Part shown: one piece after another, positions 1,148-31,884 of the stretch
Layout of the letters: each line of letters starts with the position of its first letter
Numbering within the stretch: position 1 is the first letter of the stretch
Assembly (NCBI GenBank): GCA_041649575.1
Contig: JBAZMW010000005.1
Span: forward strand, 30,001-62,000
Direction of reading: 5' to 3'
Length of the DNA: 32,000 nt
From: Patescibacteria group bacterium
Lineage (GTDB): Bacteria > Patescibacteriota > Patescibacteriia > 2-01-FULL-39-33
Notes under the pieces: model-generated
The model's database searches: none
What the model saw: the letters and a program-made list of their open reading frames with translations, nothing else
Told to the model about the DNA's origin: nothing
Program-made: the position numbers and the translations under genes

Positions 1148-1193
1148 ACCAGTAAAACAAAAGCACCATAAGTCTGGTGTTTTTGTTTTTTTT
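1148..1193 (+). terminator. weak intrinsic terminator candidate after the 95-aa gene
   Basis: Short stem ACCAG(1148-1152)/CTGGT(1174-1178) followed by GTTTTTGTTTTTTTT. The stem is weak. Confidence 0.3.
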
Positions 1194-1213
1194 ATGTAAA
1201 AATTTTTATAGAA

Positions 1214-1250
1214 TAAAAAAAGAAAGTCCACGCGTGCTCATCGCGTGGAC
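1214..1250 (-). terminator. intrinsic terminator ending cassette 1
   Basis: Perfect 9-bp stem GTCCACGCG(1226-1234)/CGCGTGGAC(1242-1250) with a 7-nt loop. On the minus strand it is followed by TTTCTTTTTTTA and lies 23 nt past the stop at 1273. Confidence 0.7.
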
Positions 1251-1272
1251 CGGGTTGTTGTACATTCGGGGA

Positions 1273-1866: not shown

Positions 1867-1957
1867 GACCAGCCTTCTCCAGTCATCGGAGACTTTCCCT
1901 GGATCAGTGGAATTCCTCGGCGTTTTCAGCCGGATGCTCCTGTCTCTCTCGCCCTTT

Positions 1958-2491: not shown

Positions 2492-2565
2492 GGTTTTCAC
2501 CCTCCTCGCTAAATGTTCCGATATTTGTCTGTCTCACAGGGTGGCCGCTTAGCCATCCATGCCTT

Positions 2566-2596
2566 ATTCTTACACCAGATCATACATTTTAGTCAA
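2566..2596 (-). promoter_or_regulatory. candidate promoter for the 1958-2491 / 1273-1866 unit
   Basis: Minus strand reads TTGACT (2591-2596), 18 nt, TAAGAA(T) (2566-2572). The -10 is weak. Confidence 0.3.
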
Positions 2597-2672
2597 CAAA
2601 CCAGTTTTTGGCGGTTTTTACAAAAGTAGCCGGTAATTGCGATAAAATAATATAAGCCGGCTAGCGGCGGCG

Positions 2673-2714
2673 AAAAAATAGAATAAAAACAGAGCACGTC
2701 TCGCGACATGCTCT
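2673..2714 (-). terminator. intrinsic terminator after the 357-aa gene
   Basis: Hairpin AGAGCAcGTC-TCGC-GACaTGCTCT (2691-2714). On the minus strand it is followed by a GTTTTTATTCTATTTTTT run and lies 38 nt past the stop at 2752. Confidence 0.6.
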
Positions 2715-2751
2715 ATAGAATACAGAACGCTGAATGTACGACCAGCCCTTC

Positions 2752-6396: not shown

Positions 6397-7935
6397 ATGA
6401 ATGGAAACCAAACAATTATCATAAGTTATTTCGACCCTTCTTTGAAAGAAGAAGTGGATTCATTTGAGCAAAGATTAAAGAAACGTAAGATTTCTCTAAT
6501 CAAAACAAACCAAGGTATCCTGGAATCTAAAATTTTTTCTGGTGCGCCCTTACAACCTAAGGAAATTTTTGACCACACCCAGTATGCTGCTACTTTTGTG
6601 TTAGAATTCATTAAACTGTGTTTTAGTATTGGCGGTTTCTTGTCACTAACTTCTCAACTTATTAAGTTTATAAAGGGAATAAAACTTAAATCCAATAAAG
6701 ACGTTTTATTAATGAGTGAAATTGAAAGGGAAAAAAATTTCCCACTTAACATTTATTTTGCAATAAATAATAAAATAGCTGATAACAAAATTTTAGATGC
6801 TTTAAAAAAAATCCCCCTAACAATCAGTTTATTTAAAAATAATTTAAGTCGTTACAAAGATAGTGAAATTTTGGTTGTCTCTTATAATGAAAACCAAAAG
6901 TGCTGGGATTTAGAGAATCTAAAAGGATATAAACACAACCGCGGGCTATCTTGTTGGCGAGCGAATAGAACGATAAAAGGCCATGGGTTGGCAAGTAAAA
7001 AAGATGTTCCTGACAAACAATATCAAAATTTGTGGGAAATGCTTAATGATCCAATATCAGAAAAAGCCAAAACTAATGCCTTGAAATTTAAGGCTTCATA
7101 TTATCAGAGATTGTATACAATTCAGGACATTAAAATGGCTTTATCTGTTTGTCCTGTTACGATTAGTGTTGACATATTTAAAAGTTTTATGAATGCAAAA
7201 AATGGTATAGTGACTTTACCAAATATAAATGAAAAGAGAATCAGTGGCCATTCGGTGTTAATATGTGGATTTAATGATGATAAAAAAGTTTTTATTATTA
7301 ACAATGGTAGTTGGGGTAGAAAATGGGGTAATAATGGGCTTGGGTGTCTCCCGTTTTCTTATATTGAAAAGTATCTTATTGAAGCTTGGGGAATGCAATT
7401 ATTATTGGCTAACTTGATTAAACTTTCAATAAAAAATTTCTTTAAACTAAAATTTTTGAAAAGTTGTTTTGCCGACAGAAAAAATAAAGGAATATTAGAA
7501 AATGGTTTTATTAAAGATAAAAGGAATCTTACTATCAAGTATGAGGTTAAAAATGTTCAACCAATCGCTTTTTCAAGGGGTTCTTTTTTTATAATTAATA
7601 TATTTGATAACAAGGTAAAAGAAAAATATGGTGGATGGTCTCATTTCAGTTATGACTCCCAAAAAAGAATAATTGAGATCGAGGAATTACTAATTTCAGA
7701 AGAAAATAGAGGCTACGGCTGGGGCTCTGAAGCTATAAAAATAGTAGAAGAATATGCTAAAAAATGGCAAGTGGAAAAAATTATTGGCTGGGTGTCTATT
7801 GAAGATGCCTATAATGAAATTCAAAAAAATCTAATAGAAAAATTTTTTAAGCAAAATAATTATAGTTGCATTGATGATAACTTAAAATTTAGAGGTTGTC
7901 TTTTTAGATTTGAAAAATATTTATTAATCCAATAG
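6397..7935 (+). CDS. papain-like (C1) cysteine peptidase domain fused to a C-terminal GNAT acetyltransferase-like domain
   Basis: GLSCWRAN (catalytic Cys context like CGSCW), SGHSVLICGF (His) and NNGSWGRKWGNNGLG (NSWGxxWGxxG). The C-terminal ENRGYGWGSEAIKIVEEYAKK resembles GNAT motif A. The N-terminal 170 aa are unknown and include one hydrophobic helix. The gene is very AT-rich: two hand-counted 60-nt lines gave 19/60 and 13/60 G+C. Confidence 0.7.
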   Translation: MNGNQTIIISYFDPSLKEEVDSFEQRLKKRKISLIKTNQGILESKIFSGAPLQPKEIFDHTQYAATFVLEFIKLCFSIGGFLSLTSQLIKFIKGIKLKSNKDVLLMSEIEREKNFPLNIYFAINNKIADNKILDALKKIPLTISLFKNNLSRYKDSEILVVSYNENQKCWDLENLKGYKHNRGLSCWRANRTIKGHGLASKKDVPDKQYQNLWEMLNDPISEKAKTNALKFKASYYQRLYTIQDIKMALSVCPVTISVDIFKSFMNAKNGIVTLPNINEKRISGHSVLICGFNDDKKVFIINNGSWGRKWGNNGLGCLPFSYIEKYLIEAWGMQLLLANLIKLSIKNFFKLKFLKSCFADRKNKGILENGFIKDKRNLTIKYEVKNVQPIAFSRGSFFIINIFDNKVKEKYGGWSHFSYDSQKRIIEIEELLISEENRGYGWGSEAIKIVEEYAKKWQVEKIIGWVSIEDAYNEIQKNLIEKFFKQNNYSCIDDNLKFRGCLFRFEKYLLIQ

Positions 7936-12457: not shown

Positions 12458-15400
12458 TTATTTAGCTACCCGAAAGACTTCTTCCACGGTCGTCTCGCCG
12501 TCGACGGCTTTGAGAATGCCATCTTGGAGGACCAGGATAGCGCCATTTTTGACCGCCGCTTTTTCGATGTCGGTATTGGTGACGTCTTCCAGCTGAATTA
12601 ATTTTTGCAACTCCGGCGTCATTTCCAAAACCTCATAAAGCCCGAGTCGGCCCTTGTAGCCGATATTGCCGCACTTAGAGCAACCCTTGGCCTGATAGAA
12701 TTCCAGCGGCTGGGGAATTTTTATGTTGGCTTTGGGGCTGATTTGGGAGAGGATTTCTTCTACCTCTTTGAGTACTGCCGGCTCCAGTTTGGTCTTGACT
12801 TTGCAATAGGGGCAGATTTTTCTAACCAATCTTTGGCCAATAGAGCATTCGATGGAATTGGCCAGCATCTGGCGGTCGATGCCCAGGCCGACAAAACGGG
12901 GAATGGCGCCGGCGGCGCTATTGGTATGAATGGTAGAGAGAACCAGGTGGCCGGTCATGGCCGCCTCAATAGCGACTTTGGCAGTCTCCGGATCGCGGAT
13001 TTCACCAATCATCATGATGTTGGGATTTTGCCGCAGGAGCGAACGCATGGCGCTGGCAAAAGTATAGCCCTGCTCGGTGTTTATCTGGGTCTGCATGATG
13101 CCCTCCAGGTGGTATTCGATCGGGTCTTCCACGGTAATAATTTTGATATCCGGACGGTTGAGTTTGTTTAAAATACTGTAGAGCGTGGTGGTTTTGCCGC
13201 TGCCAGTGGGGCCGGTGGTAATGATAATGCCCTTGGTTTTGGCCATGGATTTTTCCAATGAGGACAGGGAGTACGGCCGCATGCCCAAATCTTTAATATC
13301 CAAGGCGCTGGCCTGGCTGGAAAGCAGGCGGATAACCACGGTCTCGCCATAGCCGCCGGAAATAATGGAAACGCGAGAATCCATTTTGGCGTCTTTTAGA
13401 AAAATAGCAAAGCGCCCGTCCCAGGCGGCTTTTTTGACGTTGGTGGGGAAGCCGGCCAGGATTTTAATATTGGAGAGCAGCGGCAAATACTGTTCTTTGG
13501 GCAAGTCGACAATATCGTGCAAGATGCCATCGATGCGAAAACGAATTTTGACGTCGGTGTCGGTGGGCTCAATATGGATGTCGCCCGCCTCGCTCTTTAG
13601 AGCGGCGGCAATTACCAAATTGATCATCTCTTTGGTGGGGGTGTCGGCGATGGCTCTGGTGACACTGGTCAGATCTTTGGATAGTTCGGCGCCGCGGGCC
13701 AGTTCTGCCTCGCTGATTTTGATGCCACGGCCGATGGTTTGCGAGATAACAATATCGTACAAAGCGTCGACGTAATCTAGTTTGCCGATAACACGATAAA
13801 CTTCCTCTAGAGAAGTGATGCCGGACAGACATTTCAAGACGCCATCTTGCAGCATGGTGATCATGCCGCTCTCAATGGCCTGTTCCAGGATTTTGAAAGT
13901 GGGAGCGCCTTCGGAAGTCAGCTGCTTGATCTCTTCGTTCATGACAAAAATCTCATAAATGCCGACGCGGCCTTGGTAGCCGATACCGTTACAATAATCA
14001 CAGCCGTCAGGTTTGGCCTGGTAGACCCTGGACAAAACGGTGGGAATATCAACTCCTGATTTAGGGGAGATGACCGCCAAAATTTTTTCTACGGTTTCTT
14101 TTTCTGCTTCGCCAAGCTGATGCTCGATTTTGCACCGGGGGCAGAGTTTGCGCACCAGACGCTGGCCGATAATCGCATTAATAGAGGGAACAATAAAAAA
14201 AGGTTTGACGCCCATATCTACCAACCTGGGAATAACGCCGGCGGCATCATTGGTGTGGACGGTAGAGAGAACCAAGTGCCCGGTCAGACTGGATTGAATG
14301 GAGATTTCGGCGGTTTCCAAATCGCGGATTTCGCCAACCATAATAATATCGGGGTCTTGCCTTAGAACTGAACGCAAACCATTGGCAAAAGTATAACCTT
14401 TTTTAACATCGACTTGGCTCTGATTGATGCCTTTGAGCTGGTATTCGATGGGATCTTCCAGGGTAATTATTTTGACATCGGGCTGGTTGAGTTTGTTTAA
14501 GATGGCATAAAGCGTGGTGGTTTTGCCGCTGCCCGTGGGGCCGGCAGTCAGGAGCAGGCCGTTGGGCTTTTTAATTTCCTGTTCCAGGATTTTGTAGGCC
14601 TGGGGCATCAGCCCTAGATCCTCAAAGGACAGGACGACCGAAGCAGACTTTAAGAGGCGCATGACCACGCTCTCGCCGTAAGCGGTGGGCAGAAAAGAAC
14701 AGCGGACTTCGATTTTTTCTTTGGTCAGGAAGATGGAAAAACGGCCGTCCTGAGGCCTGCCCTCGATGTTGATTTTTACTTTGGCCATTATTTTCAGGCG
14801 GGAGATGATTTTTTTCCAATTCTCTTTGTTGACTGTCGCCGCTTCTTGCAAAACGCCATCGACTCGGAAGCGAACGGTCACGCCAAACTCCTCGGCTTCG
14901 ATGTGGATGTCGGAAGCGTCGATTTTGATGGCGGTGGCGACAATCAGAGTGACGGTATCGCTGATATTGACTTGATTGATTTTTTCGTTGAGTTCGCGGA
15001 AATCTTTCAGCTCATTCTCAAAACGCTCCAAGTCCGCTTGTTTTATTTCGATGCCGGGGACAAATTTTCTGATTTTTGGCAGAGAGTCGTAGAGCCTGAC
15101 GGCAGTTTCAAGGCTGTGTTGGGAAACCAGATAGGTAGAAACGTTGGTGTGGAATTTATCTCTCAACTCGTTTTCCAATTGTTTTATCTCGTCGTTGTAG
15201 CCGACGGCAGCCAGGCGAATATCCGAGCCATTGTTTAGAAAACAAACGACCTGCAGCTTGAGGCTGGTTTCTTTGGGCAGAGTGGTCAGGGTATCGGGAG
15301 AAATACCAAAGCCTATCAAATTAATGTAAGGCAGGCCGATGATGGCGGCTTTGTTTTCGACTTCCCGCTCTTTTTCTTTGAGAGTGATTTCCTGAATCTT

Positions 15401-15490
15401 TTTTTGCAACTGTCCTTGGGTGGAATCGTCGTCGCTAGCCGATGGTTGCTTACTGGGAAGCAGGTCTTCCAGTGAAGGGCCGATAGTCAT
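12458..15490 (-). CDS. tandem-fused double GspE/PilB-type secretion ATPase (type IV pilus assembly ATPase-like)
   Basis: 1010 aa with an N-terminal T2SSE_N-like region and then two complete ATPase units. Each unit has Walker A GPTGSGKTTTLY, Walker B (IMVGEIRD / MMIGEIRD), His box (GHLVLSTVHTN / GHLVLSTIHTN) and a tetracysteine motif (CPRCK...CDYCNGIGYQGR / CPYCK...CSKCGNIGYKGR). The DNA-level repeat is visible at 13188-13215 versus 14517-14545. Confidence 0.9.
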   Translation of the reverse strand: MTIGPSLEDLLPSKQPSASDDDSTQGQLQKKIQEITLKEKEREVENKAAIIGLPYINLIGFGISPDTLTTLPKETSLKLQVVCFLNNGSDIRLAAVGYNDEIKQLENELRDKFHTNVSTYLVSQHSLETAVRLYDSLPKIRKFVPGIEIKQADLERFENELKDFRELNEKINQVNISDTVTLIVATAIKIDASDIHIEAEEFGVTVRFRVDGVLQEAATVNKENWKKIISRLKIMAKVKINIEGRPQDGRFSIFLTKEKIEVRCSFLPTAYGESVVMRLLKSASVVLSFEDLGLMPQAYKILEQEIKKPNGLLLTAGPTGSGKTTTLYAILNKLNQPDVKIITLEDPIEYQLKGINQSQVDVKKGYTFANGLRSVLRQDPDIIMVGEIRDLETAEISIQSSLTGHLVLSTVHTNDAAGVIPRLVDMGVKPFFIVPSINAIIGQRLVRKLCPRCKIEHQLGEAEKETVEKILAVISPKSGVDIPTVLSRVYQAKPDGCDYCNGIGYQGRVGIYEIFVMNEEIKQLTSEGAPTFKILEQAIESGMITMLQDGVLKCLSGITSLEEVYRVIGKLDYVDALYDIVISQTIGRGIKISEAELARGAELSKDLTSVTRAIADTPTKEMINLVIAAALKSEAGDIHIEPTDTDVKIRFRIDGILHDIVDLPKEQYLPLLSNIKILAGFPTNVKKAAWDGRFAIFLKDAKMDSRVSIISGGYGETVVIRLLSSQASALDIKDLGMRPYSLSSLEKSMAKTKGIIITTGPTGSGKTTTLYSILNKLNRPDIKIITVEDPIEYHLEGIMQTQINTEQGYTFASAMRSLLRQNPNIMMIGEIRDPETAKVAIEAAMTGHLVLSTIHTNSAAGAIPRFVGLGIDRQMLANSIECSIGQRLVRKICPYCKVKTKLEPAVLKEVEEILSQISPKANIKIPQPLEFYQAKGCSKCGNIGYKGRLGLYEVLEMTPELQKLIQLEDVTNTDIEKAAVKNGAILVLQDGILKAVDGETTVEEVFRVAK

Positions 15491-19402: not shown

Positions 19403-20284
19403 TCAGAATTCGAACCGGAGTCCGAGTCCTGCCACCAACTTATTGCCGTCGACATAGTCCTTGTCGCCGTCGGTTTGACCCGGTCCGGCGATTTGGTACA
19501 TCAGAGACGGCACGAGGAACAGCCCTTCGTGCAGACGGAAGTCGGTGCTGACCACTATCCTGGTGTAGACATAGCCGCCGTCCTTGCCAAGGAACCCGGT
19601 GGTTAGGGCGCTTCTGACGCCCAAATCCAGCTTTTGTTCCTTGCCCAGCGGCAGGTGGAAATTGACACCGGGAAACAGATACCAACCTCCTTGGGGACTG
19701 TGGTGGCCAACCTCGCCGTAGTAGGTCAGCTTCAGGTAAGGTTCGACCCACTTGGCCTTGGTGACCGTGGCTTGGACTTGAGCTCCCCACTGGTCGTCGT
19801 CGAGCTTTTCCAGCTCGTTGAAGCCGTAGTAGGACAGGTTCAGGTCGAGCTTGAGCCAATCTCTTAGCTGGCATTCACGACCAAGGTAGAGGTCGATCTC
19901 GCCCTCAAACGGCGGAGCTGGTTCGGGCGGGGGGTTGAGCAGCAACTGCAGCTTGCCGACAGCGTCAGCCAGTTTGTCCAGATCGGGATTTTCCGGCACT
20001 TGACTGGTCGTCGCCGCTGTTTCGGCGTCGGGTTCGGCCGCTTCCTGCCGTTCGAACGGGAAGGAAGACCAGATGCCAGCATACCAACCAGACTCACCAA
20101 ACCTCAAGGTCAGTTCGTTCTCCCAGACCGGCTGGTCGTGAACTAAGATGCCGGCCTCGGCGATGTAGGCGCCCTTTATTTCGCTGCGCCAGCTACCTTT
20201 CAGTTGAAGCTTGCCCGCTTCGTCCGCGCTGGCGGCGAAGACGATCGAGGTGATGACCAATATTGTACCCATGATTTTCTTCAT
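19403..20284 (-). CDS. secreted beta-barrel-like outer-membrane-type protein
   Basis: Signal peptide MKKIMGTILVITSIVFAASA, alternating hydrophobic/aromatic strands and a C-terminal LGLRFEF ending in Phe (the OMP sorting signature). AAGGAG lies 7 nt upstream of the ATG. Confidence 0.6.
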   Translation of the reverse strand: MKKIMGTILVITSIVFAASADEAGKLQLKGSWRSEIKGAYIAEAGILVHDQPVWENELTLRFGESGWYAGIWSSFPFERQEAAEPDAETAATTSQVPENPDLDKLADAVGKLQLLLNPPPEPAPPFEGEIDLYLGRECQLRDWLKLDLNLSYYGFNELEKLDDDQWGAQVQATVTKAKWVEPYLKLTYYGEVGHHSPQGGWYLFPGVNFHLPLGKEQKLDLGVRSALTTGFLGKDGGYVYTRIVVSTDFRLHEGLFLVPSLMYQIAGPGQTDGDKDYVDGNKLVAGLGLRFEF

Positions 20285-20353
20285 GCTAGTGCTCCTTAGT
20301 TGCGGGAACGATTTGCGTGTTCCCTGACAGTCAATTGATCCAGTTCATCCGGT

Positions 20354-21685
20354 TCAGGCCATCAGGGATTTGGGCACATGATCTATCCTCTCGAACGCCC
20401 CCAGGCTTAGATGTGAAACCGTCACGACCATTAATTGCTCGACTACTTCTATTACCGCCAGCAGAACTCTCTCTGGCAGAAGCGTCGGATTGCTGGTCGG
20501 CCCGTCTCTAGCGCAGTGCACCAGCGTTTCAGTACTGGAGACGGAACAAACCATGGTCGGCTGTCGTTCTTCCAGCGCTTGCGCTCGGGCCAGGGCAGAA
20601 CAAATCAGCCCGAAGAGCATCAGCAGGCCCACCGTCGCCAACGCTTTGCGCCTGGCCAAGTCTTGCTCGGCTTGGATTAGCGCCAGGAGTTGGTGGAGCT
20701 GGAAGCGTGGCTGACTGGCCAATTCGGCGAGGTAGGCTTTCTCGGCCGCGGACAACTGATAGCCGCTCGGTTTGTCGCGCAGGTATTCCGCCTTGAGACG
20801 CAGGCGTCTCAGCTCGGTGGCCGCCGTGGTTTCGTGCGGGTAGAGCCAGACATACACCGGCCAACCAACCAGCATTTTGGCGAAACGTAACGGCGCCAAA
20901 CCTATTTCGCTACGCAACCCTAGGGTGTCGTCAGCCCAAAGGCGAACGAGGTAGAGGATAAAACAGACCACTATTCCCTTAAGGTAGGTAGTGAGAAGCC
21001 ACCGGGCGATGGCCAGCCAGTCGATCTTGGGGTCGGCAATTGCTGTCGCCCTCGAATACCAGTTGCTGTATTGCTCCTCTCTCTTCATCTGTGCCAGACT
21101 GTCGAAGTCCTCTTCATTCTTCTTGTCTCGCCAGCCGTTTTTCATGGCTAGCTGCTGGGCGTCGTCCATACCACTTCCCCAGGCATCAACGTCGAAAGAG
21201 TAGCGCAGGGGCATGAGGTTGGCCTTACAAAGATCCAGTTGCTTCTGGAGATCTGCAAAGTAGTCTTCGAGGAAGTACTGTTCTTCTTTGGCCAACCCTT
21301 GTTGCCAGAGGTTCTTGACTGTGGTCGAGTAGAACTTAGCCGTCTCTTCTGGAGACGGCCTGGTCGGCCTGATCTCCGGCAGGATGACACAGTTGTTCAT
21401 CCGACCGATGATTTGCCACTGTTTTTCGATTTCTTCGGCCGTCGGGTGATGCACGAAGCAGGCGCCCTTGAAGACAAAGAAGCGGTCTCCTTGCGGATTC
21501 CAGGGGATGACTATTCCCTGAATAGCCCAGACTACCCCGAGCAGACACAGGATGGCCGTGATTCGGTTCAGCCAGCTGGCTGGTCTCCAAGGCCACCTTG
21601 TTTCTGATGGTGGATGGTCGATGTTGCAGTCGTCGACCAACACTCGCACCGAACCAGCTGGTCCGTCGTGATATCGCCAAGCCAT
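20354..21685 (-). CDS. hypothetical membrane protein, 443 aa
   Basis: ATG at 21685 with GGAAGGAGGTG upstream. At least three hydrophobic helices and W/R-rich. No recognisable domain. Confidence 0.6.
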   Translation of the reverse strand: MAWRYHDGPAGSVRVLVDDCNIDHPPSETRWPWRPASWLNRITAILCLLGVVWAIQGIVIPWNPQGDRFFVFKGACFVHHPTAEEIEKQWQIIGRMNNCVILPEIRPTRPSPEETAKFYSTTVKNLWQQGLAKEEQYFLEDYFADLQKQLDLCKANLMPLRYSFDVDAWGSGMDDAQQLAMKNGWRDKKNEEDFDSLAQMKREEQYSNWYSRATAIADPKIDWLAIARWLLTTYLKGIVVCFILYLVRLWADDTLGLRSEIGLAPLRFAKMLVGWPVYVWLYPHETTAATELRRLRLKAEYLRDKPSGYQLSAAEKAYLAELASQPRFQLHQLLALIQAEQDLARRKALATVGLLMLFGLICSALARAQALEERQPTMVCSVSSTETLVHCARDGPTSNPTLLPERVLLAVIEVVEQLMVVTVSHLSLGAFERIDHVPKSLMA

Positions 21686-23628: not shown

Positions 23629-23659
23629 TAGCGTTTTAGGCGCTATTTTTTATTTTTTT
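23629..23659 (+). terminator. intrinsic terminator after the RNHCP gene
   Basis: TAGCG(23629-23633)/CGCTA(23641-23645) short stem followed by a long T-run TTTTTTATTTTTTT. Confidence 0.45.
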
Positions 23660-23660
23660 A

Positions 23661-23712
23661 AGTTATCCACAGAAAAGCTATTGACCATAAATATTAAAAG
23701 AGTTAGTATAAT
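23661..23712 (+). promoter_or_regulatory. promoter module P1 (DnaA-box 9-mer plus TTGACC-17-TAGTATAAT)
   Basis: AGTTATCCACAG (23661-23672, containing the consensus DnaA box TTATCCACA), CTATTGACC (-35 at 23681-23686), a 17-nt spacer, then TAGTATAAT (23704-23712). It is paralogous to 28820-28881. Confidence 0.6.
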
Positions 23713-23715
23713 TAT

Positions 23716-23972
23716 ACGAACATTGGAAGGCCTAGTGAGAGAATCTAGGGAGTAGAAACTCTCACAGAAAAGGCGAGTGCCCTCTATGTACTCAACACCG
23801 CGGAACTTTCCAGGGTTCCAACCATCACGCATTGTACTGGACGAGAGGAGTACACAGGGTAACTCAACGTTGCAAACCGCTAGCTCACGACCCGAGCGCG
23901 CATCCGAAGCGTTTAGCAACGCACATCACTCCCATCGCCGAGACCATCGCAAGACGGTCTCTTCCTTTTTTT
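23716..23972 (+). ncRNA. candidate structured RNA 1 (unclassified, about 255 nt); sRNA or orphan riboswitch-like leader
   Basis: It lies between promoter P1 and a terminator. It is GC-rich relative to its flanks and has several self-complementary segments: GTGAGAG/CTCTCAC, TGTACT/AGTACA and GTTGCAAACCGCT/AGCGTTTAGCAAC. Only implausible ORFs overlap it. Ends are approximate (plus or minus 5 nt). Confidence 0.5.
23940..23972 (+). terminator. intrinsic terminator of candidate RNA 1
   Basis: GAGACC(23940-23945)/GGTCTC(23956-23961) with a 10-nt loop, followed by TTCCTTTTTTT. Confidence 0.65.
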
Positions 23973-24056
23973 ATGAAAAATTTTTGATTTTAATTTTTTA
24001 AAGGTAGTAAGGGATTATATTAGAGACATGAATTTATTAAGTCATTTTTTAGATAC

Positions 24057-24102
24057 AAAAAAAGACGGGCATGGAGAGTGAGATTCAACTCTCCGCCCGT
24101 CT
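24057..24102 (-). terminator. intrinsic terminator ending the cassette 3 operon
   Basis: Long hairpin AGACGGGCaTGGAGAGT / ACTCTCC-GCCCGTCT (24063-24102), followed on the minus strand by a TTTTTTT run. It lies 26 nt past the stop at 24128. Confidence 0.7.
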
Positions 24103-24127
24103 TCGTGAGGTGCAAAGGCCACTATCG

Positions 24128-25336
24128 TCAGAATTTCCACGCCGTTTCGGCGAAACAGCGTGGATTTTCTCGATATTGACCCATGAAGGTGTCCTTTTCT
24201 CCCAAAGGCACACCCAGGCCAGCCTTAACCTCGAAGTCGTCCTTCCTCCAAGTCAGGGACGGTTCAAAGTAGGCGTCGCCGTGTTCAAGGTTCAGAGAGC
24301 CGCTGAGCTCCACCGACCAACGACCCGTGTCATTGGGAGTATACTTTATCCGGTAGAGCAGGGCTCCGTCGAGGCCTCGACGAAAGTCTTTCGCCCGGAA
24401 CAAATCCGGGGTTTCTTTCCGAGTCTCGACTTCGAAAGCGTACTGCAGCAGGACAGACAAGCTGTCTGTTTTCCTGAATGGCTTGTTCCATTCGTGATCC
24501 ACTCCCACGACACACTGGAGGAAATCGTCGGCGTTCTTCTGTCTGAAGTAGCCGGCTTCGGCGCGCAGGTTGTAGCCGCTAGAGATTTCCGTCGCCAGGG
24601 AGATGGCGATGACTTGTTCTTCGCGGTAGGTGGGAATAATCTGTTTCGGTAGCTTCAGCTCAAACGACGGAGTGTAGCTCAAGCCGTCGTAGAAGCTTGC
24701 GCCCAGGTCCCAGCCCTTTATTGTACAACCAGCACGAAGCGCGAGTTGGCCGTGGCCGTTTTCTGGTTCGCCTAGCTCCAGATTGTTTGGGAGCGCTTGT
24801 CCCCAACGTTCACTGGCAGGGAGTCTTGACGGGGTGAACCACGGAACGTAGACCAGTTCCAGGTACTTGTCATAGCCTAGGCGGATATCAACGGCTGGCA
24901 CTCCCATTCTCTCCCAGTCAATAACATCTGTCAGGTCGCGGGGACAGATATTGTCGTTTGGCGAGACGGTGTCGGTCACCGACCAGTCGAATACCTGTTT
25001 GCCAAGACGTAGCCGAAGCCACTTCCAAGAGGTTTCTGCGTACAGTTCCCTCGCGCCGACTATCGGTCGGTGTCCAGTCGAGTCGTCGAACACGCCTTGG
25101 GCAAATCCGGCGCTGTCCAAGCGAAGGTCGCCTTCGGCATGAATTAGGAAATGCTTTGAGAATACGGCCGTCACCTTTGGCTTAAGCCGCATTTCTGCAA
25201 AAGCATCTTCCGCTTCACTGGACTTGTGGCTGAAATAGCCATCTCCCCGCAACTCGAGCTGCCCGCCGGTTTTCCATTCCAACCCTTGGGCGACTAGCGA
25301 CAGGGAGATCAGGAGCAGGATAGTAGTACCTTTCAT
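24128..25336 (-). CDS. beta-barrel outer-membrane-type protein (porin-like), third gene of the exporter operon
   Basis: Signal peptide MKGTTILLLISLSLVAQG, amphipathic strand pattern rich in Y/W/F/G, and a C-terminal ETAWKF ending in Phe. AAGGAG lies 7 nt upstream, and the start is 4 nt from the upstream stop. Confidence 0.65.
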   Translation of the reverse strand: MKGTTILLLISLSLVAQGLEWKTGGQLELRGDGYFSHKSSEAEDAFAEMRLKPKVTAVFSKHFLIHAEGDLRLDSAGFAQGVFDDSTGHRPIVGARELYAETSWKWLRLRLGKQVFDWSVTDTVSPNDNICPRDLTDVIDWERMGVPAVDIRLGYDKYLELVYVPWFTPSRLPASERWGQALPNNLELGEPENGHGQLALRAGCTIKGWDLGASFYDGLSYTPSFELKLPKQIIPTYREEQVIAISLATEISSGYNLRAEAGYFRQKNADDFLQCVVGVDHEWNKPFRKTDSLSVLLQYAFEVETRKETPDLFRAKDFRRGLDGALLYRIKYTPNDTGRWSVELSGSLNLEHGDAYFEPSLTWRKDDFEVKAGLGVPLGEKDTFMGQYRENPRCFAETAWKF

Positions 25337-25340
25337 CGCG

Positions 25341-26117
25341 TTACTCCTTTGTCAGGTGAGCGGTTGTGAAGATGGAAGGCTCAATAGAGTCAGGAAACTC
25401 TCTCTTCACGACTCGCAACACAGTCGTCCTTCCTAGCGCGACATTCTCAATCGCGGTAGCGCCAGCTCGCCATAGCCCGCCTTCTTTTGCTTCGACGTCT
25501 TTGTTGACAAGCGTTTTGACTAGCCTGTCGGCTTGGTCGTAGAAGCGAATCTCCCTGGTGATGAAGCTTCTATCTATCAGAAAGACCCTCTTTCCGTAGC
25601 CGGATTTGATTCCAGGCTTGGATCGCGCTTCAACCGCCCAGACGCCCTCCTTGCACTCCAGTGTCTGGTAATCGAAGTCATCGAGGCGTTCGCCGGTGAG
25701 TTGCCTGGCGTCCTCGTAGCTGAAATCAGTCCCGGCGAAATACTTACTCTCGTCACCGACAGAGATTCGTCGAACCTTGTCGAACGATGGCAGCTTGAGC
25801 CATAGGTCGTCAGCATTTCCCGGATGACGGTTGACCAGCAGGCCTAACCCGCGATCCATGGCTGGTTCGCCAAAGATCATGCACGTCTTGTCCTCGCCAT
25901 TTGGCTCGAACAAGATCCAGCGAGTATAGGCCTTTTCCGTCTTCCGGCCGCTGTATCCCGTCACGACGACTTGCACGTTCTCGATTTCGTAGACTGACTG
26001 GCGATACAGCTGCCAGCTTTTGCCTACGATTTCTCGGCCGTTGTCGGTGGTGGTTTGCGCCGAAGCGACAACTGTCGACAACATGGCCGCTATTACTATT
26101 AGCATGGTTTTCTTCAT
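25341..26117 (-). CDS. LolA-like outer membrane lipoprotein-sorting protein family
   Basis: The true start is the ATG at 26117 (GGGAGA 6 nt upstream), giving signal peptide MKKTMLIVIAAMLSTVVASAQ. The block LWLKLPSFDKVRRISVGDESKYFAGTDFSYEDA matches the LolA_like family signature (LPxxxxVRRISxxxxxxxFxGSDFxYED). The 71-codon N-terminal extension in the track overlaps the MMPL gene and is rejected. Confidence 0.8.
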   Translation of the reverse strand: MKKTMLIVIAAMLSTVVASAQTTTDNGREIVGKSWQLYRQSVYEIENVQVVVTGYSGRKTEKAYTRWILFEPNGEDKTCMIFGEPAMDRGLGLLVNRHPGNADDLWLKLPSFDKVRRISVGDESKYFAGTDFSYEDARQLTGERLDDFDYQTLECKEGVWAVEARSKPGIKSGYGKRVFLIDRSFITREIRFYDQADRLVKTLVNKDVEAKEGGLWRAGATAIENVALGRTTVLRVVKREFPDSIEPSIFTTAHLTKE

Positions 26118-26179
26118 GTTGTGTCTCCCGATGTGGTTGAGCCGGGCAAGCAACCAAAGGTTGCCGCCCGGCTTGTTTC

Positions 26180-28627
26180 TCATTTCTTTTCTCGCCCTAC
26201 CACGCAGAGTGGCAGAGCGGCCAGCATGGCCACCATGGCGCCGAAGCCGCAAGCGATTAGCATGGCAATCATCACCCATCCCAGCCGTGCGACCGGAATG
26301 AAATTTGATGCCGTAAGAGGCAAGAAACAAAAGCAGTTCAGCGTAATGTCAACCAAAACCGCTCGTCCCTTGTCTCTCATACTGCCTCGCAGCGCTTCAA
26401 GTCGGCCTGTGGTCTGGATGATCGGTTGATACGCAGCTACCAAGTACAAGCCGAAGTCCATGGCCGCGTTTATCGCCATGGCGGTAACGCAGGCAGTGGC
26501 TTGGTCTAGCGGTATTCTTAGTACCATCATTAATACAGCGATGACCGCAGTAGCGAAGATAAACGGCACGTTCATGACCAGTCCGGTGCGCCAGCTGCTA
26601 AGGCACGTCGTACCTCCTCTTATTCCGCGGTTGCGCCAGAAGATCCAGAGCCCGCAGATAATAGCGACAATCCATTGCGAAGTCAGCAGGTTTAGCGGCT
26701 TGCCTTCACGGATGTATTTGTCGTTACGAGGATAGATCGGTACTTTGCCAAACGGCAAGATTTGCAGTCCGGGAAATTGCTCTCCCAGTTCTCTTATCTC
26801 GTCGCAGAGCTGGCCCAGGACATTGGAGTCTTCCATGGCTGTAGAGGCAAAGATCACGACCCCTTGGTCGAACCACAGTTGTTGCTGCACTGGTGGTCCT
26901 ACGTCCCAGGAGATGATCTCCCAGATGTCGTGAGCTTGCTGAGTGGTTGTTGGCCACTTTACGCCATATGACTCTCGCGATACCACGCCGACCGTGTCTA
27001 GAGCGGATTTGACTTCTCGGACATTGGCCAGCCTGGCGATCGCGTTTTGGAACTCGACCGCTTTTTGGATGAAGGCGGGGTCGTCCACCGTTGTCGCTCT
27101 TGAGGGCATAACCAGGACTGACACGCGGTCGAAACCGTACCTGTCGTTCTCGTTGAGGAATTTGCTGGCGCGATATACTATCGTGCCAGGGATATATTCC
27201 AAGGGTCTGGTCCGGACTTCTATGAAGTCAAAGTCCTTGCTAACCCCAGGGATATAATCCAAACTGATCATGCCGATCGTGGCAACAACCAGCGCCCCAA
27301 CCAGAGACAGTGACAGCCAGCCAATCTTTCGGTAGGCAAAGCGCCCTTTCTTGTTTCGGCCGATGACAGCGGTGATCAGACGGACGATGCCACAGAGGAA
27401 TCTGTCCCAGATCGCCGCCGCCCAGGCTATACGACTCAGACTGTTTTTCACAGATACCGCTTCGCCACCCACCAACGAGTGGAGGGCTGGCAAAAACAGT
27501 AGTGATAACAGGATGAGATACGCGATGCCGAGACTGGCGAAAATCCCTACCTCCATAATTCCTCTGACGCCGATCTGGTAGAGGGTCAGGAAGTTGAGGA
27601 TGGCAATCAGCGCTGTCACGCCTATCACGCCATTGATGGATCGGGATCGGCGCCAGACAGCAGCCATCGTGGCCTGGTTGTCGGCTAGTCGGTTTTCGTT
27701 GTAGGCACAGAACTTGTGCACTGCGAACGAAATGCCGGCTACGATGATGGCGGTGTCAACCAGCAGGAAATACACCCGTTCGTAAACAGGCAGTCCTGCT
27801 ATTTGTGCCAGCCCGATTGATCCCCGCGCCCAGATAAAGCAGATCAAAACCACGAGAGTGGCAATCACTGCCTGTCTTAGCGATCTTAGAGACACCCAGG
27901 CGATGAGGCAGACAAGACCCAGTCCGATCGTAGACAGCCTCATGACGTCGGCTGTAAGCGAAGAGAAGATCAGGCCTCGGCCAATCACCCAGCCAGCCGG
28001 CATGACTCTTTCGAATCTGCCTGTCGGCTTAATGTCTGACTTGAAAAACCACTCCCATTCGGGGATCTCCCTCTGCTCCAGCATATTCGCCACGTTTCGA
28101 AACGTCTTCATCTCCTCGTAGCCGACCGGTAGCAGCAGGATTATTTGGGAGTAATCAAATTCTTTCCCAATCAGCAGGCCGTATACCCCGGAATCCCGGC
28201 GAACATCAGCTTTCCATCTTTCGATGTCAAACCGAGGATCGTCCAGGAGTTTCTGGGATATGTAGGGGTCACTGGAGAGAGCGTCACCAGTGTCTTGGTA
28301 GTGGGCCGCTTTGGACAAACTCAGAATTCCAAAACCCGGAAAGCTTTTTTCCAGCGTTTCCGTGAACCAAGAGACGTACTCCATGTCTTCTTTGGTGATG
28401 GCTTTTGGAAACTGAACTACGAAAGAAATGGCATCTCCGGTTTTCAGGCCTTGAGAAGCCAGTCCTTTCACTCGTTCATCTAGGAGGCGGTAGGGGTCTT
28501 GCTTGTTAAGCAGGGCGTCGTCGAGATCTCCCGCTTTTTTGACGTAGAGATTGCCATACAACATCGGTACGGTCAATACCAATACGGCGATCACTACAAC
28601 CAGAGCAAAACGCTTGTCGTGCTTCAT
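26180..28627 (-). CDS. RND-superfamily exporter, MMPL/HAE3-like
   Basis: 815 aa with the two-fold architecture TM1, large extracytoplasmic loop, TM2-6, repeated once. The hydrophobic bundles are typical of MMPL-type transporters. GGGAGGA lies 7 nt upstream of the ATG. Confidence 0.8.
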   Translation of the reverse strand: MKHDKRFALVVVIAVLVLTVPMLYGNLYVKKAGDLDDALLNKQDPYRLLDERVKGLASQGLKTGDAISFVVQFPKAITKEDMEYVSWFTETLEKSFPGFGILSLSKAAHYQDTGDALSSDPYISQKLLDDPRFDIERWKADVRRDSGVYGLLIGKEFDYSQIILLLPVGYEEMKTFRNVANMLEQREIPEWEWFFKSDIKPTGRFERVMPAGWVIGRGLIFSSLTADVMRLSTIGLGLVCLIAWVSLRSLRQAVIATLVVLICFIWARGSIGLAQIAGLPVYERVYFLLVDTAIIVAGISFAVHKFCAYNENRLADNQATMAAVWRRSRSINGVIGVTALIAILNFLTLYQIGVRGIMEVGIFASLGIAYLILLSLLFLPALHSLVGGEAVSVKNSLSRIAWAAAIWDRFLCGIVRLITAVIGRNKKGRFAYRKIGWLSLSLVGALVVATIGMISLDYIPGVSKDFDFIEVRTRPLEYIPGTIVYRASKFLNENDRYGFDRVSVLVMPSRATTVDDPAFIQKAVEFQNAIARLANVREVKSALDTVGVVSRESYGVKWPTTTQQAHDIWEIISWDVGPPVQQQLWFDQGVVIFASTAMEDSNVLGQLCDEIRELGEQFPGLQILPFGKVPIYPRNDKYIREGKPLNLLTSQWIVAIICGLWIFWRNRGIRGGTTCLSSWRTGLVMNVPFIFATAVIAVLMMVLRIPLDQATACVTAMAINAAMDFGLYLVAAYQPIIQTTGRLEALRGSMRDKGRAVLVDITLNCFCFLPLTASNFIPVARLGWVMIAMLIACGFGAMVAMLAALPLCVVGREKK

Positions 28628-28720
28628 GTTCTATATCCTCCCGAAGCCATTTCAGGCCCCGTAGTTTAGGTCTTAATTGTCAACGTTCTTGGCTTTAAGT
28701 TGCTTTTTAAGCAACTATTA

Positions 28721-28749
28721 ATATTAACATATTTATTTTTTTATGTCAA
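28721..28749 (-). promoter_or_regulatory. promoter of the cassette 3 exporter operon
   Basis: Minus strand reads TTGACA (28744-28749), 17 nt, TAATAT (28721-28726). The predicted 5'-UTR of about 85 nt starts in the AGTTGCTTTTTAAGCAACT hairpin. Confidence 0.55.
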
Positions 28750-28819
28750 GTATTATTAAAGTAATATTATCTTTAAAATGCTGTTATAAATATTTTATTT
28801 TGTTAATATTTTATTTTTG

Positions 28820-28881
28820 AGTTATCCACAGCTATTGATTTTATTGCTATTGACAAACTTATATTTTTTTGCTAGTATAAT
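28820..28881 (+). promoter_or_regulatory. promoter module P2 (DnaA-box 9-mer plus TTGACA-17-TAGTATAAT)
   Basis: AGTTATCCACAG (28820-28831), a duplicated CTATTGA, -35 TTGACA (28850-28855), a 17-nt spacer, then TAGTATAAT (28873-28881). It is divergent from the exporter promoter. Confidence 0.6.
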
Positions 28882-28884
28882 CAT

Positions 28885-29066
28885 ACTAAGTAGTGTACCT
28901 TGGCTTCATCTTTGGGCAGCTCTCTATAGTAGGGGTAGAGGGCAAGTAGTTGTGAGGCCGATTGCTGCGGCGATCGCGACCAAAATCGACAGGGCGGACC
29001 TAGTTCGCCCATCCCCTCATTCTGAAGTGGCTGGCACAGGTATGTGTTCAGCCCCTTTTTTGTTTA
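28885..29066 (+). ncRNA. candidate structured RNA 2 (unclassified, about 180 nt)
   Basis: It lies between promoter P2 and a terminator. Local hairpins are GCTCTCTA/TAGAGGGC, GCCG/CGGC and GGGCG/CGCCC. Only an implausible ORF (28817-29101) overlaps it. Ends are approximate. Confidence 0.45.
29029..29066 (+). terminator. intrinsic terminator of candidate RNA 2
   Basis: GGCTGgCACA / TGTGttCAGCC hairpin (29029-29053) followed by CCTTTTTTGTTT. Confidence 0.55.
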
Positions 29067-29078
29067 AGTGGTTAGATG

Positions 29079-29176: not shown

Positions 29177-30145
29177 ATGTCGCACAGAGGAAGTCTAGGA
29201 AGACTTTTGCGACGCCATCCCGCGTCGCCAAAAGTAGCAGCCGAGATGATTCGTCGTCGCACCAGGATTCACTTCGCGCAAGTCACTGACGATTTGATTC
29301 CGGATGCCTTCGAGATATACGAAGGGGATTGTTTCAAGACCGCGATCAAGAAGCATCCCAGGGTGAAAGGGTTCATAAAGGATTTCTGGCGGTGGAATGA
29401 ATACGCCTTGTCGCTTATGAACCAGAACTCATTCCCCTACATCAGCATGCAGCAGCTTCTGGCCAAGATGATCGCTCCCTTTACCGGGGAAGTTCTGGCC
29501 GACATCGGCTGTGGCGCTGGTGATTTCTGTGCTCGTTTGCTTCAGCAAGACGGACACTGGATCCGGAAGATCTTCGCTGTCGATATTGATGCTTGGGGCT
29601 CACTCGCCAGGGTGCCGCAGACTCTCAAGGATGCTGGGTACAGGGGGAAAGTGGCCTTGGCTCAAGACTCGACGATGTCCAGACTGCCAATCTGGGACGA
29701 AACCGTGGACTGTGTTGTTTCCAGTCTGGGCGGTGTCACCTATGCGGGTTGGTGGTTCGAAGACGGCGAGCTGGTTTGTGAAGGAAGGGAGGCACTGCGG
29801 AGAAGCCTGAAAGACATCCGTCGCATTCTGAAGCCGGGTGGGTATCTAGGATTTTCAGGTTTGATGCCGAATCCCGACTTCATGATGATCTTCAAGTATT
29901 CGCTGTGGGAGCCGCTACGTCACTGTCGCCTCAAGCCGTTGTGGATGACTCTTAAGCACGGCTTGCGGATCAAGAAGATCTCCGCTTTCATGCACGAGTG
30001 TGAGTGCAAGCAGACCGCGCACTACCTCACCCTGGAGGAGTGGGCTGCTTATCTAAAGGAAGCGGGATTCGAAGTTGTCGACGCTAGCGTCGGCGAGTCG
30101 TACGCTAAGCAGGGCATCGTAGTAGTCGCACGTAAGGTCAGTTGA
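29177..30145 (+). CDS. class I SAM-dependent methyltransferase
   Basis: Motif I LADIGCGAGDF, acidic residue after beta-2 (FAVDID) and post-II/III LKPGGYLGFSG. AAGGAGA lies 7 nt upstream. AAG/TTC/ATC codon preference. The roughly 110-aa N-terminal extension is of unknown function. Confidence 0.8.
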   Translation: MSHRGSLGRLLRRHPASPKVAAEMIRRRTRIHFAQVTDDLIPDAFEIYEGDCFKTAIKKHPRVKGFIKDFWRWNEYALSLMNQNSFPYISMQQLLAKMIAPFTGEVLADIGCGAGDFCARLLQQDGHWIRKIFAVDIDAWGSLARVPQTLKDAGYRGKVALAQDSTMSRLPIWDETVDCVVSSLGGVTYAGWWFEDGELVCEGREALRRSLKDIRRILKPGGYLGFSGLMPNPDFMMIFKYSLWEPLRHCRLKPLWMTLKHGLRIKKISAFMHECECKQTAHYLTLEEWAAYLKEAGFEVVDASVGESYAKQGIVVVARKVS

Positions 30146-30240: not shown

Positions 30241-31884
30241 ATGGATATAAGAAACATAATTTTATTTATTGTATCGGTTTTGGATATAATCGTAGCGCTG
30301 GTTATATTTATTCATAACCCCAAAAAGGTTATGAATATAGCTTATTCTCTGACTGCTGTCTGGGCTGGCTTGTGGGGTTTTGGCATTGCAATGTTTAGGA
30401 TGTCCACTATTCACTTAGAACAATTGGTTTGGAACCAGTTTTTTATTTTTGTAGCGGCGTTGGTCGGCAGCGGTTTTTTACACTTCTCTTTGGTTTTCGG
30501 CGACAAGGCCGCAAAGTTGGATTTGAGAAGGTTTATATTGGTATACGCCCCTAATCTGATAGTTTTATGGGCAGTTTTGACTCCGGGAGTCATGATTAAG
30601 GATATCGTTGTCAGGAGCTGGGGCAACGAGAGTATTTTGGGTTGGGGCTATATTTATTACGGCTTGTATTTTGCCTTGTTGTGGCTGTGGGCGACTTTCA
30701 ACTTGTTTAAAAAATATGCTAAAGGCGAACCATCCCTAAGACAACAAATACTTTTTATCTATATTGGCATTGGCGTATCAATAGTTTTTGGCGCCACCTT
30801 TAACCTGATTTTTATTTTACTGGGCAATTATCAATACATTTGGCTGGGGCCATATGCCATGTTTTGCTTTGTTATCGCCACTTCTTATGCGGTGGCCAAA
30901 CATCAGCTATTGGATATAAAGGTGGTGACAACAGAAATTTTTGCTATCTTTTTGAGTCTGTTGACCTTTTCCGATCTGTTCAGGACTAGTGGTGGTTGGG
31001 AGTTTTCCGGAAAATTAGCTTTATTTTTATTAACTTTATTTTTTTCCATCCTTCTCATCCGCTCTGTCCTAAATGAAGTTCGCCGCCGCGAAGAAATGGA
31101 AAAACTCACCGAAGAATTAAAAAAGACCACCAAGAAGTTGGCTTCTGCCAACAAGGAACTGGAAAGGCTGGACGAAGCCAAGTCGGAATTTTTGTCCATC
31201 GCCAGCCACCAGCTGCGCACTCCCTCCACCATTATCAAAGGCTATATTTCCATGATGCTCGAGGGCAGTTTTGGCAAGGTGCCAAAAATAATCAAAGAGA
31301 ATTTAGATAAGGTCTATATTTCCAACGAGCGCTTGTTAAATTTGATAGAAACATTATTAAATATTTCCCGCATTGAATCTGGCCGACTAGAATTCAACAC
31401 CCAGCCGGTGGATTTGGTGAAGACCATCGAGCCGATTGTGGCCGACTTTCAGAAGAAGGCCAAGGAGAAGGGCTTGAAACTGGAATTTAGAGCCGAAAAA
31501 GATATCCCACAGGCCAAGGCCGACCCGCAGAAAGTCAAGGAAGTGATTTCCAACCTGATAGACAACTCTGTCAAATATACCAAGGAGGGTGAGGTGATTA
31601 TCGGTTTGCATCAGGAGGGCCAGTCGGTGGTTTTTACCTGCCAGGACACGGGTATTGGCATTGATCCAGAAGATGTGCCGCGGCTGTTTAATAAGTTTGT
31701 GCGCGGCAAGGGCATGATGCAGGTGTATACCGAAGGCACGGGCTTGGGACTATACTTCGCGCGGATGGTGATAGAAAATATGGGCGGCCGTATTTGGGCG
31801 GAATCGCCAGGCAAAGGCAAGGGCAGCAAATTTTCTTTTTCTCTGACGATGGCCGATAAAAATAAGGCTAAGAAAGTGAGCTAG
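30241..31884 (+). CDS. sensor histidine kinase with an N-terminal 7TM-type membrane domain
   Basis: About 7 N-terminal TM helices, a coiled coil, H-box SIASHQLRTP, N-box ISNLIDNSVKYT, G1 DTGIGI and G2 GTGLGL. Confidence 0.9.
   Translation: MDIRNIILFIVSVLDIIVALVIFIHNPKKVMNIAYSLTAVWAGLWGFGIAMFRMSTIHLEQLVWNQFFIFVAALVGSGFLHFSLVFGDKAAKLDLRRFILVYAPNLIVLWAVLTPGVMIKDIVVRSWGNESILGWGYIYYGLYFALLWLWATFNLFKKYAKGEPSLRQQILFIYIGIGVSIVFGATFNLIFILLGNYQYIWLGPYAMFCFVIATSYAVAKHQLLDIKVVTTEIFAIFLSLLTFSDLFRTSGGWEFSGKLALFLLTLFFSILLIRSVLNEVRRREEMEKLTEELKKTTKKLASANKELERLDEAKSEFLSIASHQLRTPSTIIKGYISMMLEGSFGKVPKIIKENLDKVYISNERLLNLIETLLNISRIESGRLEFNTQPVDLVKTIEPIVADFQKKAKEKGLKLEFRAEKDIPQAKADPQKVKEVISNLIDNSVKYTKEGEVIIGLHQEGQSVVFTCQDTGIGIDPEDVPRLFNKFVRGKGMMQVYTEGTGLGLYFARMVIENMGGRIWAESPGKGKGSKFSFSLTMADKNKAKKVS

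Follow-up and report, generated by a model that had tools for sequence, protein, structure and literature searches.

A probable horizontally acquired conveyor for lipids or hydrophobes, ending in an outer-membrane-type barrel, in a Patescibacteria chromosome

How a bacterium that is thought to live within a single membrane comes to carry an operon ending in an outer-membrane-type beta-barrel, and what use it could make of it, is the question raised by a three-gene locus in a 32,000 nucleotide stretch of DNA from a Patescibacteria group bacterium (GenBank assembly GCA_041649575.1, contig JBAZMW010000005.1, forward strand positions 30,001 to 62,000). This whole stretch is called the window here, and positions are counted from its first letter. 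The locus encodes a pump belonging to the RND (resistance-nodulation-division) superfamily, a LolA_like carrier and the barrel, and was picked out by an earlier sequence-only reading made without database searches. The reading that we favour, with reasonable though far from complete confidence, is that the operon is a functional, horizontally acquired conveyor of hydrophobes or lipids in a genuine Patescibacteria chromosome.

On the minus strand, from 28749 to 24057, the three open reading frames (ORFs) run head to tail in the order RND, LolA_like and barrel as a single promoter-to-terminator unit (Table 1), and so the layout proposed from the letters alone is borne out, including the gap of 4 nucleotides (nt) between the LolA_like stop and the barrel ATG. 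The putative promoter is predicted from its match to the consensus and lies about 90 nt 5' of the RND ATG within AT-rich intergenic DNA. All three genes have a Shine-Dalgarno (SD) site 6-8 nt before the ATG, GGGAGGA for the RND gene, GGGAGA for the LolA_like gene and AAGGAG for the barrel gene; a description of the genes as SD-less in the sequence-only reading thus holds for the backbone but fails for the operon. NCBI starts the pump 21 codons downstream (794 amino acids, aa), which would cut away part of the first transmembrane (TM) helix, and since GGGAGGA precedes the upstream ATG the 815-aa start is the more likely one. One gene caller gives the carrier an alternative start at 26183 (280 aa, overlapping the RND stop), and the start at 26117 is supported because GGGAGA precedes it. 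A stem-loop in the gap between the RND and LolA_like genes lacks a U-run and may be an element of mRNA processing or stability.

The 815-aa protein, taken for an RND exporter from its letters, does score above the Pfam cutoff for MMPL (PF03176; 25.7 bits against 20.5, residues 225-402), and NCBI names it an MMPL family transporter. Its best NCBIfam models are HAE3, MMPL and HpnN, all far below their cutoffs. Because HAE3 (TIGR00921, TC 2.A.6.7) is the best-scoring RND subfamily and yet stays at 56 bits where 351.9 is the cutoff, while HpnN is the nearest structure, the family profiles allow the pump to be called HAE3-like only. A Kyte-Doolittle scan places TM1 at residues 7-25, a cluster of helices at 224-378, one helix at 438-456 and a second cluster at 645-803; the loops measure about 200 aa, and the profile fits a 1+5+1+5 layout of 12 helices and two large external loops, in which individual helices are partly resolved. 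The sole PDB relatives by sequence are structures of the hopanoid transporter HpnN (5khn and 6wu0, E 4e-7). HpnN shares the RND membrane-domain type with the pump and carries a lipid outward, from inner towards outer membrane; the similarity covers the TM2-6 region only, and the TM4 Asp of HpnN (D344) is replaced by a Ser (GISF), the pump having a TM10 Asp (A-x-D-F) instead. This TM10 residue is invariant across all 12 aligned members of the pump family and may serve in proton coupling.

Identification of the carrier is more straightforward. The peptide LPSFDKVRRISVGDESKYFAGTDFSYEDA, quoted in the sequence-only reading, lies inside the 258-aa ORF, and PF17131 (LolA_like) matches that ORF far above the cutoff (127.6 bits against 30, E 5.6e-37, profile positions 1-183 of 184), with a weak DUF1329 match in Pfam besides. 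The PDB relatives are 9tp6, 3bk5 and 4z48, uncharacterised LolA_like structures (E 1e-18 to 1e-13). Read by eye, the N-terminus MKKTMLIVIAAMLSTVVASAQ is Sec-signal-like and without a lipobox Cys, and so the carrier looks like a secreted soluble protein, as predicted from these features.

For the third gene the sequence-only reading had a 402-aa signal-peptide protein of barrel character ending in ...AWKF. The ORF indeed has a signal-peptide-like N-terminus and ends in ...ETAWKF, the family consensus also ending in F. An AlphaFold2 model built from an alignment of 22 homologs (mean pLDDT 80.8, pTM 0.79) yields a DSSP listing with about 20 segments of strand, which is not a count of strands in the barrel wall. 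Foldseek matched this model to outer-membrane barrels only among PDB entries, with MOMP, OmpM1, AlgE and OmpF on top (probability 1.0, E about 1e-12, TM 0.5-0.58), and a closed outer-membrane-type beta-barrel fold is therefore the prediction. Family assignment is less direct. No Pfam or NCBIfam family matched the protein at E <= 0.01, and Pfam DUF1302 (PF06980) gave 12.1 bits (E 0.096), below its cutoff of 23.2. However, hhalign aligned the family profile to P0028, a PF06980-bearing protein, with 99.5% probability, and among the 4581 representative clusters matched by a search with that profile, 4/10 sampled distant members pass the DUF1302 cutoff. On the sub-threshold Pfam score, the hhalign result and those distant members together, the profile comparisons place the protein in the DUF1302 barrel superfamily, as a divergent branch of compact size (about 400 aa). 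Its relatives are few: 30 were found among 5.8 billion proteins, at no more than 48% identity besides the protein itself, and those with names belong to Nitrospirae, Syntrophus and Syntrophobacteraceae. A plasmid search with the barrel returned 3 distant (24%) matches only, in Acinetobacter records of 3.7-4.1 Mb, and so the module shows no sign of travel on known plasmids.

Taken by homology, the three proteins would form a relay for a hydrophobic or amphiphilic, lipid-like cargo. The RND pump in the cytoplasmic membrane would use the proton gradient to draw cargo out of the membrane and up into the pair of large loops on its outer side, the secreted LolA_like protein would shield the cargo in a hydrophobic half-barrel, and the DUF1302-related barrel would receive it or pass it on at an outer lipid layer. 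Where that barrel would sit is the difficult part: the cell itself might have an outer layer to hold it, a diderm host might take it into its outer membrane where the two cells touch, or, with the operon unused, it would sit nowhere.

Known systems give this relay some precedent. AmeABCD of Castellaniella defragrans acts in monoterpene tolerance and dye efflux (PMC6394551), and a cofit DUF1302-DUF1329-BNR(COG4447)-RND(COG1033) cluster of Shewanella and Pseudomonas has been proposed to export an envelope component (10.1101/072470); both have been connected with envelope phenotypes and with how cells tolerate or handle compounds that are very hydrophobic (PMC6394551; 10.1101/072470). The operon in the window resembles them in encoding together an HAE3-type RND protein, a periplasmic protein of the LolA superfamily and a DUF1302-type barrel, and differs in several respects. 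The barrel has about 400 aa and lies below the DUF1302 cutoff where theirs has about 600 aa, the carrier is a 258-aa PF17131 protein and not one of about 450 aa with DUF1329, the gene order is RND-carrier-barrel and not barrel-carrier-BNR-RND, and the genome is that of a Patescibacteria member. No BNR/Ycf48-like (COG4447) gene was found among the scanned window ORFs, either between promoter and terminator or in the flanks, and the other three-gene loci described below likewise run from RND through carrier to barrel with no BNR gene between. HpnN, for its part, functions without a co-encoded carrier or barrel (PMC6394551). The carrier is like LolA and LolB in having the LolA_like domain in a secreted soluble protein and unlike them in having no LolCDE ABC transporter; since its partner is an RND pump, a lipid or hydrophobe is more likely than a lipoprotein as its cargo. 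A closer parallel is TOL_3187 of Thalassolituus oleivorans, an MMPL-LolA_like fusion induced 42-fold on a C28 alkane (PMC6304351), in which pump and LolA_like domain act together as fused parts, whereas in the window each has its own gene and a barrel gene comes after the two. Because the RND and LolA_like pair is thus known as a functional unit, only the barrel is a diderm-specific part of the module. Literature searches returned no paper on the compact three-gene variant and no prior description of an outer-membrane protein, LolA or RND protein in Patescibacteria or Moranbacteria; the compact variant, made of RND pump, PF17131 carrier and DUF1302-like barrel of about 400 aa and often accompanied by a 7TM kinase, appears to be uncharacterised even in diderms.

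Whether the chromosome around the operon is what its label says can be judged from the flanking genes. At NCBI an exact match to the 402-aa protein is WC518_04285, encoded on a 114-kb contig of a 'Patescibacteria group bacterium'. The S1 gene next to the operon has hundreds of relatives at 70-80% identity, the named ones being Buchananbacteria, Falkowbacteria or Patescibacteria, and by tblastn FtsH is 78-79% and S1 81-83% identical to the proteins of relatives. The order S1, CDP-alcohol transferase, FtsH, hypothetical protein, PilB-type ATPase, TsaE and TsaD is kept in three of these (L004, L006 and L007), of which L004 (ENA ERZ27250193 k141_333617) is the closest syntenic relative. Identity and gene order together place the backbone as a genuine Patescibacteria chromosome, Buchananbacteria-like, in agreement with what its general features had suggested.

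Since the GC content and SD usage of the operon are sharply unlike those of its flanks, and the records of its exact proteins may all stem from one sample, the contig might be chimeric or misbinned, with the operon belonging to a diderm genome. We consider this very improbable. The junctions RNHCP - operon - methyltransferase - kinase are identical on a Logan contig that was assembled separately, though its sample may be the same one; the islands of unlike composition are gene-sized and intergenic, with backbone synteny resuming on both sides, and one of them (19403 to 21685) falls precisely into the gap separating the genes for the CDP-alcohol transferase and S1, which are neighbours in relatives. 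In L004 and L022, relatives from other samples, SD-bearing genes of high GC are likewise interspersed with SD-less genes of low GC, and the full operon is present on a single 1.3-Mb contig labelled Moraniibacteriota. Assembly artefacts at the operon junctions, a concern of the sequence-only reading, are therefore unlikely.

Granted that the operon belongs where it is found, its composition still sets it apart. Its GC content is 0.53-0.55 (GC3 0.63-0.65) against mostly 0.41-0.50 for the backbone, and SD sites of the GGAGG type precede 7/7 of the high-GC class genes in the window (the three operon genes, the methyltransferase, and the 293-aa, 443-aa and 357-aa genes) as against 0/13 backbone genes. 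The best homologs of the operon proteins are 48-49% identical and come from Nitrospirae and Syntrophobacteraceae. Because these best homologs are distant and diderm, the GC is higher and the SD sites are unlike the backbone, the operon looks horizontally acquired and of foreign type. It is one of several such higher-GC, SD-bearing islands in a genome that is a mosaic gene by gene, low-GC genes with AT-rich leaders and no SD site being interspersed with genes of GC 0.53-0.60 having a GGAGG-type SD, and the pattern goes on downstream of the window (L021). The gene for HisRS is in the high-GC class both in the window genome and in L004, the two proteins being 61% identical to each other; as HisRS is presumably essential, membership of this class does not necessarily mean that a gene is recent or useless.

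These data bear on a second alternative, in which the operon, recently taken from a diderm (a neighbour or a host), is passenger DNA that the cell leaves unused and that will decay, the barrel being without a place. The donor-like GC, the SD sites unlike the backbone and the mosaic genome with many such islands all fit, as does the proposal that Patescibacteria have no outer membrane (PMC12102498). Several features do not. The three ORFs are intact, and the family-conserved residues (>=90%) are kept as well as in diderms, 89/97 in the pump, 33/38 in the carrier and 58/59 and 40/40 in the barrel, all within the range of diderm family members, and so to judge from its proteins the operon is intact and without signs of decay. 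It comes with its own promoter-like site and terminator, the SD class to which it belongs includes the presumably essential HisRS in two related genomes, and the module recurs in Patescibacteria-labelled genomes, one copy having the GC of its low-GC neighbours while its proteins are conserved. On balance passenger DNA seems to us rather unlikely.

The recurrence deserves some detail. A scan with one genome per species found 13 loci of the module, and the order RND, carrier, barrel is that of 10 loci other than the window, cultured diderms such as Curvibacter gracilis and Roseateles among them; with Nitrospirae and Syntrophobacteraceae showing it as well, the view that the arrangement is one of Gram-negative lineages stands. 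The order holds in every locus that extends far enough, except for L012 (barrel alone) and the MAG143 'Patescibacteria' contig (L003/L013) of 3.9 kb, where the barrel is upstream of the RND gene and no carrier was detected; the MAG143 locus, with barrel and RND gene only on so short a contig, was set aside as backbone evidence. The full operon in the same order is found on a contig of 1,308,268 bp labelled Candidatus Moraniibacteriota (L015, JAXHLG010000002.1). In L014, labelled 'Bdellovibrionales', the operon has a GC of 0.33-0.37, level with its low-GC neighbours, and between L014 and L015 the module proteins are 41-55% identical and a shared upstream TrmB regulator 43%. Since the GC of the L014 operon matches its neighbours while the L014 and L015 proteins stay 41-55% conserved, long retention of this module under selection in low-GC genomes is indicated. 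SD sites in L014, L015 and L017 are on the operon genes only, save for the L017 methyltransferase, even where the GC matches that of the neighbours. In rough neighbour-joining trees the copies labelled Patescibacteria do not form one group. For pump and barrel, the window copy is placed in or close to the group of Nitrospirae and Syntrophobacteraceae, and for all three proteins the 1.3-Mb copy goes with L014.

The neighbours of the module give some clues to its function. In L017 (Moraniibacteriota-labelled AS08sgBPME_209) the barrel is followed by a PlsC-type acyltransferase (L017:1509-2291, plus strand; PF01553, E 2e-19) directly 3' of the barrel gene, then by a methyltransferase and a HisKA_7TM kinase, and this acyltransferase hints at a lipid link. 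7TM kinases adjoin the module in the window, in L014 (HisKA_7TM-GAF), in L017 and in Curvibacter L019 (7TMR-DISM), a recurrence which hints that the module may be regulated by a membrane signal. The window kinase itself has backbone-type composition. Divergent from the operon lies a class I SAM methyltransferase sharing the operon composition (GC 0.54, GC3 0.65, SD AAGGAGA), and whether it is part of the module is uncertain; the idea of a conserved 'module methyltransferase' was rejected, the window and L017 methyltransferases being not homologous. As a further observation, a conserved protein of about 390-420 aa without a confident Pfam match is encoded just upstream of RND in L014 (2634-3902) and in the proteobacterial loci L018, L019 and L020, with 31-32% identity between loci, and has no counterpart gene in the window.

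The operon barrel is not the only one in this clade. A second high-GC, SD-bearing island encodes a 443-aa membrane protein with no Pfam match and, 4 kb from the operon, a 293-aa protein with a signal peptide and the C-terminus ...GLGLRFEF. The AlphaFold2 model of the latter (pLDDT 74) is an outer-membrane-type barrel of about 12-14 strands, with OmpG, NanC, FapF and PcoB as its Foldseek matches. The family of this cassette is tiny, with 5 proteins, and the cassette is kept in L022 (454 and 297 aa, 46% and about 55% identical). In L004 the operon's slot beside the RNHCP gene is taken by a third barrel of 398 aa, a FadL/Toluene_X protein (L004:8170-9366, plus strand; PF03349, E 4e-32) that ends in ...GGSYRF and whose gene has a GC of 0.56 and an SD site. 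At least three barrels of outer-membrane type are thus present in the clade, the 402-aa, the 293-aa and the FadL-like one; each has an aromatic C-terminal end, and all are in foreign-type islands.

Three different barrels with such C-terminal signals, one DUF1302-related, one OmpG/NanC-like and one FadL/Toluene_X, might mean that cells of this lineage, or those of some Patescibacteria, themselves possess an outer lipid layer that has gone unrecognised, with barrels assembled in it. Yet none of the three is in the conserved backbone, and the roughly 42 kb covered by the window and L021, a small part of the genome, showed no BamA/Omp85, Lpt, Lol or lipopolysaccharide (LPS) gene. In the 10 kb or so beyond the kinase (L021) the genes encode HisRS, ThrRS and small hypothetical proteins, and none is for envelope biogenesis. 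The published proposal, which includes a type IV secretion system of monoderm type, is that there is no outer membrane (PMC12102498), and an own outer layer is in our estimate distinctly unlikely.

Alternatively the barrel or barrels would be secreted, together with the carrier, to a contact site with a diderm host, where they would serve lipid or hydrophobe exchange for a lipid-auxotrophic epibiont. Patescibacteria depend on hosts for lipids. The donors, Nitrospirae and Syntrophobacteraceae, are plausible hosts, the accompanying barrels are of types that transport lipids or hydrophobes (FadL-like and DUF1302-like), and the L017 module has its PlsC acyltransferase next door. Set against this are the direction expected of the pump, since RND pumps of the operon's type are exporters and not importers, and the lack of any known mechanism by which a barrel that depends on BAM could enter another cell's outer membrane from the exterior. 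We can give this host-interface possibility only slight credence.

The favoured reading, a functional and horizontally acquired conveyor, has to be held against a number of contrary points. Outer-membrane barrels normally need the beta-barrel assembly machine (BAM) as well as an outer membrane to enter. Patescibacteria have been proposed to lack the latter (PMC12102498, PMC8871954), and the barrel may be non-functional here. That the window operon keeps a donor-like GC is what a recent, not yet purged acquisition would show. The trees of the module are rough neighbour-joining ones, the taxonomy of L014 and L015 is that of the depositors' labels, and of the other loci labelled Patescibacteria two lie on short contigs, of 3.9 and 13 kb, and could be misbinned. 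Cargo class, direction of transport, expression and location of the barrel are matters that we infer. A bolder extension of the reading, that the Buchananbacteria-like clade and at least one Moraniibacteriota repeatedly acquired barrels, kept them and deployed them beyond their own cytoplasmic membrane in a further lipid layer, be it their own envelope or the outer membrane of a host, is tentative and on present evidence doubtful.

The surroundings of the operon hold further features that do not decide its function. A 23-nt direct repeat (..AGTTATCCACAG), containing the DnaA-box-like TTATCCACA, brackets the operon. Read on the plus strand, each copy is followed 3' by GCTATTGAC(C/A)-N17-TAGTATAAT and then by a GC-rich noncoding stretch of 190-265 nt that ends in a hairpin and a T-run. 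The repeats were considered as att sites and rejected, as the foreign-type methyltransferase lies outside them and each is immediately upstream of an element resembling a promoter; a promoter module that is repeated seems the better description. The noncoding stretches have no Rfam match and were not found in the fetched relatives, and they could be small RNAs or gene remnants. Nothing credible came from Rfam for the whole window at gathering thresholds or for both operon flanks searched permissively, and the window has no tRNA or tmRNA as a possible integration site. A third high-GC stretch at about 1000-3825 (GC 0.49-0.57) has overlapping ORFs on both strands and is of uncertain coding status, its 357-aa SD-bearing ORF having no Pfam match. 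The gene for a papain-like peptidase fused to an acetyltransferase is a compositional outlier in the direction opposite to the high-GC islands. The tandem T2SSE fusion is kept in L004 (1007 aa), and the corresponding proteins of the Buchananbacteria contigs L006 and L007 are single-domain (432 and 566 aa).

Table 1. Features of the operon and of the rest of the window (positions counted from the first letter of the window)
Feature	Position	Strand	Details
Promoter-like site	28721..28749	-	TTGACA-17 nt-TAATAT with upstream TG (extended); consensus scan 10/12; predicted
RND/MMPL pump ORF	28627..26180	-	815 aa
Intercistronic stem-loop, RND/LolA_like gap	26140..26174	-	-27.6 kcal/mol; z -5.9 against shuffles
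LolA_like carrier ORF	26117..25341	-	258 aa
Outer-membrane-type barrel ORF	25336..24128	-	402 aa
Intrinsic terminator	24057..24101	-	hairpin of -27.9 kcal/mol, z -6.8, then U7 ending exactly at 24057
23-nt direct repeat copies	23650-23672 and 28809-28831		
GC-rich noncoding stretches 3' of the repeat copies	23712-23975 and 28884-29075	+	
Class I SAM methyltransferase	29177..30145	+	Pfam Methyltransf_11/25
HisKA_7TM sensor kinase	30241..31884	+	Pfam
Second high-GC island	19403-21685	-	443-aa and 293-aa proteins
SD-bearing ORF in third high-GC stretch	2752-3825	-	357 aa
Papain-like C1 peptidase fused to GNAT acetyltransferase	6397-7935	+	GC 0.29
Protein with two tandem T2SSE (PilB-type ATPase) domains	12458-15490	-	1010 aa

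The assumption that Patescibacteria have a single membrane feeds into models of envelope evolution and of how epibionts feed on their hosts, and an intact, conserved and outer-membrane-directed conveyor is hard to place in a one-membrane cell. The two further barrels of the clade and the presence of the operon on a 1.3-Mb Moraniibacteriota contig make it the more striking. If the barrels are used, then the envelope model fails for some lineages, or else the barrels work at the host interface, and in the latter case the locus would give a concrete and testable handle on lipid exchange with hosts. Barrels that were kept and deployed would amount to a dedicated route of lipid or hydrophobe traffic for a lipid-dependent epibiont. 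If they are not used, the locus still shows that a streamlined genome has taken in diderm-type genes heavily and in gene-sized pieces, and that the imported genes keep their own translation-initiation signals.

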